Both the position numbers and the translations under genes were made by a program. DNA of 64,000 nucleotides, taken from a virus. Location of the stretch: IMG/VR virus record IMGVR_UViG_3300028394_002801, positions 32,001 through 96,000 of that record; one strand, given 5' to 3'. Shown here piece after piece: positions 14,188-54,168 of the stretch; within the stretch, counting starts at the first letter, position 1; every line of letters begins with the position of its first letter. The notes under the pieces are model-generated. The model made no database searches, was not told where the DNA came from, and saw nothing but the letters and a program-made list of their open reading frames with translations.

Positions 14188-14216
14188 CATTATACATCTT
14201 CAAATGAAGCACCAGT
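14188..14216 (-). repeat. 29-bp direct repeat, copy 1 (encodes sheath C-terminus TGASFEDV*)
   Basis: Identical to 12368-12396. Confidence 0.95.
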
Positions 14217-17200
14217 AGGGGTTATAACAAATTCAAGGCTAATAAACTCAAGAGACCTTGTAGGTTTAATATATATTTTTCCACTCATTGTATTTCTATC
14301 AATATCCTCTGGGTCATTTGAAACCGTAACACGGAAATCAGTTAAACCACGATCCCTTCTAATTCCATCAAGAATTGGATTTATGGTATCTAAAAACTGT
14401 TGGCGGACTATCTGGTCATTTTGTTCAAAAAGTAGCCTCACAGCGACCGCGGAGATTAATTTACGTGCTTGCAATAACAACCTACGAACGTTAATTCTAT
14501 TTAATGCTGATTCTCTAACTTGCAAAGTTTTATTTCCCCAAATTACAGTATTCACATCAGAGAATGTTGCAATTGGATTTATTCTTCCTTGATATAAAGT
14601 ATCTCTATCATCTTGTGTTAATTTTAATCTTGCTTTAACTGAATTAACCAATCCTCTATTATAACCTGCTGATGCAAACCAAGGGAATGCTACGTTATCA
14701 GTTAATGCCAAATTTCTACAAACTTCTGCTGTTGGTGGAATATATACTTGGGTATTATTCACTTGGTCTCTAACCAAAATCCAAGGATAATATGTTGCAG
14801 TATAATTTGAATCAATATTTGTTTCCTCCAAAGAAACAATTGATTCTTGGGGATAAATAACATTATTCACATCAGTTGTTAATAAATTTGCATCAGGTGT
14901 TGTAACAATATAAATTGAATCTGCTCTATCGCTTTCAATCATATCAATTGCATTTTCAACCAAGTTGCTATTATTAATATAATCAATACCTGGTGTAACA
15001 AAAATATTTATATTTGTTGATTCTGGATTTTGATATGTTAAAATTCCCTTTAAATATGCATAATAATCTGTTGTTGCAAATTCAATTGAACCATCACCAT
15101 CTGTAATTTGTTTAAATGTTCCTTGTCCTGTTGCCGCTACATATTTGCCAGATACAGATAATGCACCTCTCATATAATCAATACCTCCAATTTGGTATGA
15201 ATCACCATTTGTTCTTCTTTCAGAATAAACATCCCATCCATCAAAACCACCCTCAAATAATAAGGTGAATTTTCTTGAATATAAGTAATAATATGGATTT
15301 GAATTTGTTTCTGGTTCTGAATTAAAACTTCCACTACCAACCTCAAATGCTGTTTGACCACTTGTTGTATAACTATTTGCTATTGTAACAATTGTTGCAC
15401 CTGAATCCATATGGAAACCTTTTGTCACCACATTCCATTCTGAACCATCAGAAATAATGCTTGCTGGATTTTGTTTACCCTTATAGTTTAATAAAGAATT
15501 ATCATATCCATAATTTGTTGAAAATCCAAGATATGTTCTTTTTACATTATCAGCGGCTACAGCATTTGATGCTGCAAATGGTTCATTATTAACAACCTCA
15601 TTATTATAATAATATTTTGTCTTATATAATAAATTTGGTGTTAATGCACTACCATACTTTCTATGGGGATAACCCATAAATCCACAAGGAATTGCATCAA
15701 ATGGAAATTCATCACCCATTTCAAGCATAATGTATTTTGAAACCAAATTATATTTGCCATCACTTGTTCCAATCTTCTTTCCAACAAAACTATTTTGTGT
15801 TTCATCTAATGTGCAATTTGTATATTTTTCCAACACAACTGGCGCTGAATCTGAATCATAATAACTTCTAACCAATACATCAAATGTTCTATTCTTAAAT
15901 GACATATTAACAATTGAAGCCTTAACTTCAGTATTTGCTGAATTTCCATCAGATATTGAAATGAATTTGAATAAGTTATAAACTTTATTTCCTCTCAATT
16001 CAGAAACAACAAATGGTGTTTTTGGTGATTGATATTTTTCAAGATACCATCCAATTGATGTACCACTACCACTTCTTGCTGATGGCAAATAAGTTAAAGT
16101 TTGTTTTAATCCTCTAATATAACCAAGTCTATATGCTTGATTTAATAATGTTGGATAATGTTCTTCAACAAATATTGGGACATCATTCCTATCTTTCCCA
16201 AAATTATCAACACCCAATACATTTGCAATATAATTTGAATTGGTATTTTTTAATGATACATTAAATGTGTAATTAGTGTTTGATGTTGTTTTTCCACTTA
16301 AAACAAAATTACCAAATGGTGTCTCACTTATAGTTGTACTATTAGCTGTATCAATAGTTAATGCACTTAAACTATAAAGTTGACCATGATCGGTTGATGA
16401 ATAATTTGTGATACCTCTTGACCTAATTGTTGCAACAACCATATCATTATAATCTGTATATGCTGTTCCAGTAAATGTATAAGTGTTACCAGTTACTGTT
16501 CCAGTGAATGCGCCACTTGATACATTAAAACTAGATGTGTTGTAATAAAATGAATAACCTGTATAATCATTCCCAGAATTAGCAAATGTTGCATAATACC
16601 AAAAATCATTTTCATTTGCTGGCTTACCATTACTACCCAAAGATACAGTTGTTCCAAAATAATTATATTCAGTTAATCCTGACTTTGTTGATCCTGTGAT
16701 TGAATTATACACAGATACTGGTAATGAACCATAAGTTGATGTTTGACCAGTTAATGAAGTTGATAAAGCCACATCATTTGCAAATGTCTTTAAATCATCA
16801 TAGAATGTTGATGTTGAACCATTGCTTGCTGTATAAGTATCACCAGAAAATAATGCTGCACTTATACCATTTGGATATGTAGCACTTGTTATTACAAATG
16901 TTCCAGTTGTTCCAGTTGTTCCAGTAAATACTATTGAGATAGATGGACCAACACCAGTTCCACCGGTTAAACCAACAGTTGAATGATTAACATTTGCAAT
17001 TGTTGTTATTGACCAAGATGGACCAGCATCATAACCAGATAGTCCCAATACCCTTGTAACATACATTTGATTTGATTGTTGCAAATATGACTTGGCAATA
17101 TATGCAGATTCATATTTTGGTATCTGTGTGTTTATATATTTTTCAGGTGATGTTCCACCAAAATAAGTTTGAAATTCATCATAACTTGTAATGAATATAG

Positions 17201-51754: not shown

Positions 51755-51756
51755 AA

Positions 51757-54168
51757 TTAAATTTTTATATTACCTTTTATATAAATATCATTTAATAGTT
51801 TATTTGTGTTTGGTAAATTCAATAATGATAAGAATAATACTCTATATGTTCCTGATGGTATTGCTGCACCTGATGTTACTGTGACATTCTGTGATGCAAT
51901 TGAATCTGGAATTCCTTGGTCTGAATAATCTGTTCCACAAGGTGTAGAACCTGCATTTATAAACATATTGGTCATTGTATTACCAACCCCATCAATAGGT
52001 ATCCATATTGAGTAAAAGTATTTTATATCTGTGTTTATTTGGCTTGCACCCACTCTAATTGTTTCAAATGTATATTGATTTTGTGGGCATCCAAATGAAT
52101 CTTCTGAATAACTACTTGTTTGCTTTATTGCCCCACTCAAGAATATTGGTGGATATTTATAATTCCCTATATTGCTTGTAAATGCTGGATAATGGGCATA
52201 TGCATTCATATTGTTTGAATAATTATCTTCATCTGGAACGCCATAGAATTGGTAGCCACCCCAAGTTGCAAGACTTTCATTTAACATATAATTCTCCAAA
52301 GTAACACCATCATCAAATGTTTGAGGTTCAGCAAATATATAAGCATAATATGCTCTTGCAGATGGGGTTGGGGTTATGTTTGGTGGTATTGGTTGGGCAT
52401 CAGGGTTGAATGGATCAATTAATGAATATCTTGTTTTTAATAGATTAAAATTATGTCTTATTTGCCCAGCATTTAAAGGTTCAATATACATCCTAAATGC
52501 ACTTAAATCACCCACCAAACTGCCACCAAATTCTTTTTCAAGAATAATATTTGTTGTTAATCCTAAATATGGTGTGTTATTTAATATATCTGTTGTTGAT
52601 AGTTCTGGGTCTTGTATTAACTCATTGCTTGTGCAAGATGATAATGTTAAAGAATCCTTTAACCCTTGTGTTCCCCCACCTATGGAAATATTGAAAGGAA
52701 CACCAATTTGCCTTTCTTTTAGAGTATTTAATGGTCTTGGGATAATTTCCTCAAAATTATCAATAATGAAGAATATTTTACCATTTATGTATATTCTTAA
52801 ATTTCCATTTCTATAATTTTTTGTATTAATCCATGATTGGTCAAAGTTAACCACTTCAATTGAAGTATTTGTTTCTCCGCTTGTTTTTGGTAGTATTAAT
52901 TCAACACTTCTATCAGTTGTTGTTGCGGTATATTGACTAGATATTAATAAACCTAACCCTCCAAGTTCGTTTAAATCACAATTTTCAATTAATCTATCTC
53001 TAACAAATACTGCATCAATCTGAACCCAATTTTCATTTTGAATATAAGTTGTATTTTTGAATTGGTCAAATATTCCTTTTGTTGAACACCATTGATTTAT
53101 TGTTGCTCCTGATGTTTCACAAGTTCCAGTTAGTGTATATGTTTTTACACAAACTATTGGATTTCCTGAATCACCGCTTAATTGGATTGATAGGGCATTT
53201 GAAACAGAATCATATAAGGGATTTGGTTCTGTGAATATGACATCTTTATCATAATTTGTCACCCCAGTTATGGGATAAACCTTATTGCAAGTTGATGCTG
53301 AATAGGTGGATGCTGAATAAGTTGGATTACAATTGCAAGTATCCAAACAAGTAAGTCCTGATGTTGGTCTTGTATAATCACTATATGATATTGGATGACC
53401 ATCAGCAAAATGATAAAACTTATTTTCAGCCCTTGCTCCAAGATAGAAGAATGTTCCTTTATTTTTTGGATATCTAACATTCAAACCATTTGTGTCACCT
53501 GTCCATCTATATTTAATTAAAAACTCTGCTGTCCAACCAAGTTCAACTCTTTCTGGGAATATTTCATAATTATATCCAAATATTTTATAAAATCCTTGGT
53601 AAAACCCACCATTCAATTCTGCATATCTTCCAATATTTTGTTGTGTTTTACCTGTTAAATTATATGTATAACTATTGTCATTATAAATCCTATTTGTTGA
53701 TGTGGTGATACCTGATATTGGATGTAACTTTAATCTTCTATCATACTTTAATCTATTATATTTATCTACTGAATTTGTGTATAATCCAGTATTAATTTGA
53801 ATGGTTTCACCTGAAAAATTTAAAGTTAATCCATTGTCAATTCCTGTTAGTCCAACATCACATATTGAAAATCTATTTTGATATGTATTTGCTGTTAAAT
53901 TATAATTTTCTGGATTATAATAATTTTTTGAAATAATAATATCATTACTAAAAACTCCACAATTTATACAAATTGATGTTTCTGAATTATTTAAATCAAA
54001 ATTGAATGGCATTCTATTGCCATCATCTTCAGCAATTAACTTGGATGAGAATACAGTTTCTGTATCATAATTCAACTCATCTGATGTCAAACTTATATCA
54101 ATAATCTCATTCACAGGTCTAAACCCAATCTTATTGAAATTATACTGACTAATATTTTGATAACTCAT
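51757..54168 (-). CDS. Virion structural protein with LamG-like core
   Basis: GWTAEF, LRIYING, ISIGGGT, GDLSAFRMYIEPLNAGQIRHNF. Confidence 0.6.
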   Translation of the reverse strand: MSYQNISQYNFNKIGFRPVNEIIDISLTSDELNYDTETVFSSKLIAEDDGNRMPFNFDLNNSETSICINCGVFSNDIIISKNYYNPENYNLTANTYQNRFSICDVGLTGIDNGLTLNFSGETIQINTGLYTNSVDKYNRLKYDRRLKLHPISGITTSTNRIYNDNSYTYNLTGKTQQNIGRYAELNGGFYQGFYKIFGYNYEIFPERVELGWTAEFLIKYRWTGDTNGLNVRYPKNKGTFFYLGARAENKFYHFADGHPISYSDYTRPTSGLTCLDTCNCNPTYSASTYSASTCNKVYPITGVTNYDKDVIFTEPNPLYDSVSNALSIQLSGDSGNPIVCVKTYTLTGTCETSGATINQWCSTKGIFDQFKNTTYIQNENWVQIDAVFVRDRLIENCDLNELGGLGLLISSQYTATTTDRSVELILPKTSGETNTSIEVVNFDQSWINTKNYRNGNLRIYINGKIFFIIDNFEEIIPRPLNTLKERQIGVPFNISIGGGTQGLKDSLTLSSCTSNELIQDPELSTTDILNNTPYLGLTTNIILEKEFGGSLVGDLSAFRMYIEPLNAGQIRHNFNLLKTRYSLIDPFNPDAQPIPPNITPTPSARAYYAYIFAEPQTFDDGVTLENYMLNESLATWGGYQFYGVPDEDNYSNNMNAYAHYPAFTSNIGNYKYPPIFLSGAIKQTSSYSEDSFGCPQNQYTFETIRVGASQINTDIKYFYSIWIPIDGVGNTMTNMFINAGSTPCGTDYSDQGIPDSIASQNVTVTSGAAIPSGTYRVLFLSLLNLPNTNKLLNDIYIKGNIKI

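Follow-up and report, generated by a model that had tools for sequence, protein, structure and literature searches.

A Ser/Thr-Gly/Ala-x-Thr tetrapeptide over-represented in unrelated virion proteins of large phages, and its apparent association with a virus-specific GT-B glycosyltransferase gene

The tetrapeptide Ser/Thr-Gly/Ala-x-Thr ([ST][GA]xT) is genuinely over-represented in unrelated virion proteins encoded by the viral contig IMGVR_UViG_3300028394_002801, and this excess is not an artefact of amino acid composition. Our analysis centered on a stretch of 64,000 nucleotides (the window, positions 32001-96000 of the 110,395-bp contig; approximately 30% G+C), to which all coordinates below refer unless another contig or genome is named. 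Across phage lineages, the excess appears to travel with a gene putatively encoding a GT-B-fold glycosyltransferase (GT) at 56864-58084 and not with GT60 glycosyltransferase genes, making the tetrapeptide a strong, though unproven, candidate site of protein glycosylation by the phage. We tentatively favor the explanation, at a little less than an even chance, that the tetrapeptide is a selected surface motif read by phage glycosylation machinery, with GT-B as the best candidate enzyme. The contig encodes T4-like tail genes (sheath, tail tube, and a baseplate wedge protein outside the window) along with domains typical of Bacteroidota (Fib_succ_major and SprB repeats). No close relative was found among GenBank phages; its relatives in IMG/VR number in the hundreds. 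Our literature search found no paper describing the [ST][GA]xT motif or any phage GT60.

Motif instances were counted in the translations of 57 non-nested open reading frames (ORFs) of the window and are given throughout as observed versus expected. An initial annotation, made by eye from the sequence, had proposed that the motif is enriched in structural proteins relative to others, and shuffling upheld this: the window's virion proteins contained 44 instances vs 11.9, while all other window proteins contained 2 vs 7.5. Across the whole 110-kb contig, the virion set contained 99 vs 28 and the remaining proteins 3 vs 8.8, and six more large proteins beyond the window were also enriched. The deficit in non-virion proteins was not reproduced in two other phage genomes, G015 and G020, and we therefore make no claim of depletion. 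Virion-set statistics leave out two proteins. The first, a 1260-aa protein with 30% Thr and a C-terminal LamG domain (19781..23563, - strand), showed no enrichment (2 vs 6); the second, a collagen-repeat fibre with a C1q-like head (48536..51754, - strand), was excluded because its 29 vs 21 reflects composition.

The by-eye counts of the initial annotation proved accurate or too low. The tail sheath (1047 aa; 14190..17333, - strand; phrog_23, E=5.7e-59; Pfam Phage_sheath_1C) contains 15 instances vs 3.1, the by-eye count of about 12 having missed TAYT, SANT and a second SALT. These had been placed mostly in the sheath's insertion region, and all 15 do map to the predicted inserted, non-core domains (aa 111-690; 15264..17003, - strand; 15 vs 2.6), with none in the core (0 vs 0.85). 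An 803-aa virion protein (51757..54168, - strand) contains exactly the 12 instances originally listed vs 1.5, every one of them within aa 92-433 (52870..53895, - strand). This protein had no Pfam, PHROG or PDB sequence match; it has a Cys-rich N-terminus, a ConA/LamG-like middle (a label based on conserved sequence in the family alignment) and a variable C-terminal part. Motif spacing is irregular in both the sheath and the 803-aa protein, with no repeat unit. In the FISUMP-domain protein (276 aa; 17394..18224, - strand; Pfam Fib_succ_major, E=4.7e-23), all five instances listed earlier are present, vs 1.35. Other bearers include three small fibre-like paralogues, each 167-168 aa long (18252..19768, - strand), two of which have the motif at residue 13, and a 1567-aa tail or baseplate-region protein (2187..6890, - strand; 6 vs 2.1, local-shuffle p ~0.01). 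DNA polymerase and helicase, originally scored as about one and none, contain 1 vs 0.5 and 0 vs 0.5.

Could the excess arise by chance, or from composition alone? The motif-rich proteins are richer in Ser, Thr and Gly than enzymes are, but we give this explanation next to no probability. Enrichment survived per-protein shuffles (p<0.002) as well as shuffles confined to stretches of 15 or 30 residues (89 vs 20-21, z=15-16), and it is seen again in three further lineages and dozens of homologues. When four gapped three-residue shapes (32,000 patterns) were scanned without bias in the sheath, 803-aa and FISUMP proteins, the top pattern was SGxT (13 vs 1.7, p=3.5e-8), followed by TGxT (11 vs 2.0). 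Ratios by motif form were 5.2x for SGxT, 3.7x for TGxT, 2.6x for SAxT and 1.9x for TAxT, and near variants were flat, including the replacement of the final Thr by Ser ([ST]GxS, 0.91x), [ST]GxN (0.72x), NGxT (1.08x), DGxT (1.2x) and [ST]SxT (0.97x). Neither the reversed motif (1.2x) nor N-x-[ST] (0.96x) was enriched in the virion set. The same holds there for the Bacteroidota O-glycosylation motif D-[ST]-[ALVIMT] (56 vs 62.9, 0.89x), from which the tetrapeptide had correctly been distinguished.

The sole clear flanking preference is for a hydrophobic residue (Phi) at -1, found in approximately 60% of instances vs a background of 34%, with a mild preference for Tyr or Ile at +4. The codons beneath the motif are diverse, which places the signal in the protein and rules out a DNA-level motif. 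Shared-domain ancestry can also be ruled out for most motif-bearing proteins, since in an all-against-all blastp only the FISUMP paralogues and the three small-fibre paralogues matched each other.

Structural context was modeled for the sheath with AlphaFold2 from 80 sequences (predicted local distance difference test, pLDDT, 85; predicted template modeling score, pTM, 0.80). The core of the model matches solved sheaths (Z=36; root-mean-square deviation 1.9-3.3 A over 323-456 residues), with 320-450 of the 1047 residues aligning. Inserted sheath domains face outward in established sheath architecture, and it is from domain position only that we argue the motif sites are probably exposed. In the model, the Thr at +3 lies in coil at seven sites, in strand at six and in helix at two, close to the background of aa 111-690; the sites in the model thus share no local conformation. 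The corresponding model of the 803-aa protein, built from 13 sequences, was unusable (pLDDT 34).

Homologues at 42-60% identity retain the density of the motif while most of its individual sites change. The 22 homologues of the 803-aa protein (42-83% identity) contain 10-16 instances each vs 1-2 expected, the exception being a 1434-aa form that is not enriched (16 vs 12.5), and 77 sheath homologues (60-99% identity) contain 5-16 instances vs 2.1-3.6. Yet only 4 of the 15 sheath sites and 3 of the 12 sites in the 803-aa protein are kept in >75% of homologues below 70% identity, and the family alignments contain 34 distinct motif columns for the sheath and 52 for the 803-aa protein. Insertions in homologues carry motif copies of their own, and some conserved columns vary at the S/T, G/A and x positions (TGQT, SATT, SAQT and SGST in one column, for example). 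Density that is kept through turnover is the behavior of sequons and short linear motifs, unlike that of fold-determining residues.

Among 150 representative sheath homologues at 34-68% identity, the excess is unevenly scattered over the sheath tree, differing even within a sister pair (15/3.4 vs 0/1.2). Motif-poor sheaths have unrelated residues at the sites conserved in the window's clade, though the flanks align. (The relatives found with P0019 were all at 38-44% identity and came from the main group.) Because density is kept through turnover, the motif appears independently in unrelated proteins, the sites share no local structure and related phages lack it, the motif behaves as would be expected if a trans-acting factor recognized it on exposed domains of the virion.

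The excess is not a general property of myovirus virions. The 50-kb structural region of T4 contains 20 vs 22, and Microcystis phage Mel-JY01 contains 18 vs 14, with 1 vs 1.5 in its long sheath; the 420 ORFs of Xanthomonas phage XacN1 contain 159 vs 166, again without enrichment. Flavobacterium phage immuto (119 vs 80, about 1.4x, no protein individually enriched), the coliphage muut, G004 (113 vs 93, 1.2x, one protein individually enriched) and G027 (92 vs 78, 1.2x, none) point the same way. An effect of the host phylum is unlikely, given the mere 1.4x of immuto. The initial annotation had called the motif a phage-specific virion site; it is indeed a protein-level feature of virion proteins, but "phage-specific" understates its reach, as it is shared by several large-phage lineages.

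One gene of the window appears to follow the motif through these lineages. It putatively encodes a 406-aa GT-B-fold glycosyltransferase (56864..58084, + strand; phrog_7162, E=1.3e-41; weak Pfam Glycos_transf_1) whose nearest Atlas clusters are all viral, suggesting a virus-only family. It had no PDB sequence match and no characterized close relative, and in a homologue search the matches listed were all at least 72% identical, with no distant lineage among them. GT-B is present in seven of the eight long contigs of the window's motif-enriched clade; in three of three contigs of the P0042 clade (46-49% identity), where enrichment is modest (sheaths 5-8 vs 1.2-1.7); and in the four largest of eight contigs of the motif-enriched P0095-related clade (44-48% identity). 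It is absent from the unenriched P0043 clade (0/7, two complete) and P0127-related clade (0/8, the best 84% complete), as it is from XacN1, Mel-JY01, immuto, T4, G004 and G027. Counts over whole genomes bear this out: GT-B-positive G020 contains 219 vs 74, with 13 proteins individually enriched (SGxT 65 vs 8, TGxT 54 vs 9.7), and GT-B-positive G015 contains 154 vs 93, with nine. In a gene-content screen of the contig's 95 ORFs, GT-B alone was shared with both G008 and G020 yet missing from all of G004, G027, XacN1 and immuto, and when the 310 ORFs of G015 served as reference, GT-B stood far above three weak extra matches.

The association was also used predictively. The 735-kb uncultured megaphage LR756501.1 contains GT-B at 34% identity (tblastn), and its genome was scored after enrichment had been predicted from that gene. 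The motif count there is 325 vs 152 for the entire genome and 251 vs 90 for large proteins, with 18 proteins individually enriched, one of them a 1350-aa protein with 24 sites in varied contexts. Large-protein ratios are 2.6-3.8 in GT-B-positive genomes (one per clade) vs 0.9-1.6 in GT-B-negative genomes or regions. GT-B occurs in each of the four motif-rich lineages that were sampled. Wherever a whole genome or near-complete contig was examined, motif enrichment and GT-B presence went together without exception, over few independent contrasts. In GT-B-positive, GT60-negative G020, the 427-aa product of 137304-138587 (- strand of that contig) has nine uninterrupted tandem units, (SGxT)9, in what resembles a linker at residues 205-240 (SGET SGST SGDT SGST ... 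SGGT); no such pure tandem array was found in seven other genomes scanned.

Other sugar-transfer genes fit the distribution of the motif poorly. The most obvious candidates were the GT60 enzymes (PF11397), which in Dictyostelium and Trypanosoma are UDP-N-acetylglucosamine (GlcNAc):polypeptide alpha-GlcNAc transferases that start mucin-type O-glycans on Thr-rich stretches. The window has two clear members, 40025..41281 (- strand; PF11397, E=1.6e-64) and 47120..48391 (- strand; PF11397, E=6.9e-47), neither with anything useful in a PDB sequence search. That these paralogues lie beside virion genes, and that GT60 occurs in eight of eight long contigs of the window's clade, could suggest that the motif is the acceptor sequon of phage GT60 polypeptide GlcNAc-transferases. 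We consider this very unlikely. The initial annotation had suggested testing whether GT60 presence follows the motif in relatives, and it does not: GT60 is absent from two motif-rich clades, including P0042 with its two complete genomes; motif-rich G008, G009, G019 and G020 all lack it. It is present at 43% identity in XacN1, which is unenriched. The GT60 substrates are more likely to be the Thr-Pro stalk or the collagen-like fibre. G019 and G020 also lack the GT2_5/GT4 fusion, which was therefore rejected as the correlate; its GT2_5 domain is confined to the P0042 clade and that of the window. GT-B-like genes of Justusliebigvirus coliphages such as muut (26% identity, ~325 aa) are accompanied by no motif excess; we therefore do not regard them as equivalent, and they offer no Escherichia coli model.

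How might motif and enzyme be connected? In the explanation we favor, Phi-[ST]-[G>A]-x-T would be a short linear site under selection on outward-facing domains of numerous unrelated virion proteins, including the inserts of the sheath, fibre-like proteins and large proteins of the baseplate or tail. Its most likely reader would be the phage's own cytoplasmic glycosylation machinery, in which the virus-specific GT-B is the best candidate for the site-recognizing or initiating enzyme. GT2, GT4, GT25 and GT11, and in this clade GT60, might then extend the glycan or serve the Thr-Pro stalk and collagen-like fibre, and the outcome would be a glycan coat on tail and fibres. Within this scheme, the sites may be modified, the modification may be a sugar and GT-B may add it, with either the residue at position 0 or the Thr at +3 as the acceptor. 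The narrower claim that a virus-only GT-B family of several large and huge phage lineages attaches O-glycans to many virion proteins at Phi-[ST]-[GA]-x-T sites in their exposed domains is a possibility that we put forward with some doubt.

Several observations weigh against glycosylation by GT-B. In the sheath model, three sites lie wholly in strands and two wholly in helices, which are poor acceptor positions once a protein is folded. GT-B-positive and -negative genomes separate with a Mann-Whitney p=0.004 when phylogeny is ignored, and the independent contrasts amount to P0042 vs P0043, the P0095-related vs the P0127-related clade, the outgroups and one prediction. Some GT-B absences are weak because many contigs are fragments. 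In LR756508.1, which lacks GT-B, the sheath reaches 5 vs 1.06, and its region is otherwise unremarkable. GT-B-positive G008 is only modestly enriched once repeats are set aside, most of its excess being a coiled-coil repeat ('SARTdedqkiw') that inflates motif counts, and its homologue of a conserved 500-aa protein, described below, has no motif sites. Repeats also carry the motif in G020 fibres ('TGFTd.f.TGGTYd') and in FN3-like modules of LR756501.1 ('TGLTP..Y'), and SprB repeats (SGGT) supply part of the count for a protein at contig positions 5-2188, outside the window. Finally, GT-B could glycosylate DNA or a host polymer, roles that are both listed for phage glycosyltransferases (PMC12619734), and be only a lineage marker.

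These repeats raise the alternative of a structural motif, belonging to beta-rich modules of surface or fibre proteins (FN3-like, SprB-like and fibre repeats) in which these phage lineages happen to be rich, with no modification and with GT-B an unrelated marker of lineage. The repeat-borne instances favor it, including those in the coiled coil of G008, as do the hydrophobic residue that so often precedes the motif and the few sites conserved in all sheath relatives sampled. A fold-specific repeat should, however, place the motif at equivalent positions with one conformation, and this fails for both the sheath and the 803-aa protein. Most motif-bearing proteins share no blastp homology, the sheath sites fall in a mixture of secondary structures close to background, and turnover affects most sites, with density maintained. 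The turn-favoring N-G and D-G pairs are not enriched, and Ser does not substitute for Thr at +3. Moreover, sheath homologues of the same architecture do without the motif, and T4, Mel-JY01, XacN1, G004 and G027 have beta-rich virion proteins with no excess. Overall, we regard a purely structural role as unlikely.

Independent appearance in unrelated proteins, turnover with kept density and restriction to certain lineages would be equally expected of another trans-acting reader. The motif could be phosphorylated or acylated, could serve to dock a decoration or assembly protein, or could promote adhesion to environmental or host polysaccharide, and a hexapeptide acyltransferase is encoded at 63293-63826. 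Against this, the sole gene that tracks the motif is a glycosyltransferase, and the gene-content screen revealed no kinase or other modifying enzyme with a motif-like distribution. The three further G015 genes that share the pattern (300162-301004, 254378-254797 and 276264-276587 on the G015 contig; not on the window's contig) are weak matches, at E=1e-6 to 1e-10 apart from one at 1e-64 against G020. A reader other than glycosylation machinery therefore has, in our estimation, a low probability. Our preferred reading, a surface site for phage glycosylation machinery, has partial parallels in several known systems.

The chlorovirus PBCV-1 has virus-encoded cytoplasmic glycosyltransferases and atypical capsid protein sequons, with N-linked glycans and sites known from structure. 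The proposed phage system would resemble it in using a sequon unlike the host's canonical one and virus-encoded cytoplasmic enzymes; it would differ in that PBCV-1 is a eukaryotic virus with N-linked glycans, while linkage here would be of O-type, on Ser or Thr. General O-glycosylation in Bacteroidota, the predicted host phylum, similarly involves a Ser/Thr sequon of three or four residues on many unrelated surface proteins, but it is periplasmic and acts on exported proteins, whereas virions assemble in the cytoplasm, and its motif shows no excess here (0.89x). The GT60 family itself offers a further likeness in its two clear members in the window, though its distribution does not follow [ST][GA]xT.

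To our knowledge, phage virion glycosylation has been shown so far only for some mycobacteriophages, and without a sequon. There, glycans on the C-terminal ends of capsid and tail-tube subunits have been demonstrated experimentally, as summarized in a later paper (Freeman et al. 2023 via PMC12619734). In that summary, phage-encoded glycosyltransferases are proposed to coat the phage's own structural proteins with glycan in the cytoplasm, much as we suggest. The system proposed here from sequence analysis would differ in its scattered tetrapeptide, in its location, which in these large myoviruses would be the inserts of the sheath and proteins of the fibres or baseplate, and in its enzyme set. 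Moraphages and other large aquatic Bacteroidota phages come from freshwater and have T4-like tail genes and predicted Flavobacteriia hosts (PMC12619734). These phages have several core glycosyltransferase families of unknown role (PMC12619734); no motif and no substrate are reported in that paper.

If GT-B does O-glycosylate this sequon, bacteriophages would have a general, sequon-directed system of protein glycosylation, the first to be described in them, and it would imply an evolvable glycan shield on tail and fibres in which site density is selected, much as on enveloped animal viruses. A defined tetrapeptide together with a candidate enzyme would let glycosylated phage proteins be predicted from sequence, would help explain the many glycosyltransferases in large aquatic and gut phages, and would permit testing of the effects of a glycan coat on adsorption, stability, and recognition by hosts and grazers. 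The analysis also sets aside GT60, the first suspect, and points to a single gene for expression and assay. Even without a sugar, a short motif that arises independently in unrelated virion proteins of several lineages still needs explaining.

The sugar-transfer gene set of the window is unusually large for a phage and occupies 39266-48391 and 56864-63826. In addition to GT-B and the two GT60 genes, it includes a 789-aa HtrL/YibB-like and GT2 fusion (41328..43697, - strand), whose XacN1 homologue adjoins the GT60 gene, and a series of possible glycan-elongating enzymes, all on the + strand: a GT2_5+GT4 fusion (59807-61441), GT25 (61465-62088) and GT11, of the fucosyltransferase family (62092-62880), with which the hexapeptide acyltransferase (+ strand) is also listed. 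Several unannotated ORFs of 230-320 aa lie between the sugar-transfer genes at 43675-47117. In XacN1, a cultured Xanthomonas jumbo phage that could be a culturable model for the GT60 module, the GT60 homologue lies beside a carbamoyltransferase gene, the HtrL/GT2 fusion homologue and a GT9 gene, and the locus (AP018399.1, 213850-223508) continues with a 3313-aa protein and a baseplate wedge gene.

Some motif-bearing proteins have further features of their own. The N-terminal half of the 803-aa protein has invariant cysteines (C103, C278, C280, C294, C350, C361 and C397), and many of its homologues have Pro-Thr linkers, (PT)n, of variable length inserted before the variable C-terminal domain. 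The coiled-coil repeats of G008 lie in a 1074-aa fibre-like protein (47880-51104, - strand, of that contig) as helical units of ~18-32 residues, 'e-v-S-A-R-T-d-e-D-q-k-i-W-x-A' (also written 'evSARTdedqkiw'). Outside the window, two adjacent and possibly capsid-associated 500-aa proteins at contig positions 106425-109451 matched nothing in Pfam, PHROG or PDB sequence searches. The second is conserved in G015, G020, G008 and G004 (32-58% identity); it has two motif sites in G004, none in G008, and six to eight in G020 and the clade of the window, some of these lying in aligned loops.

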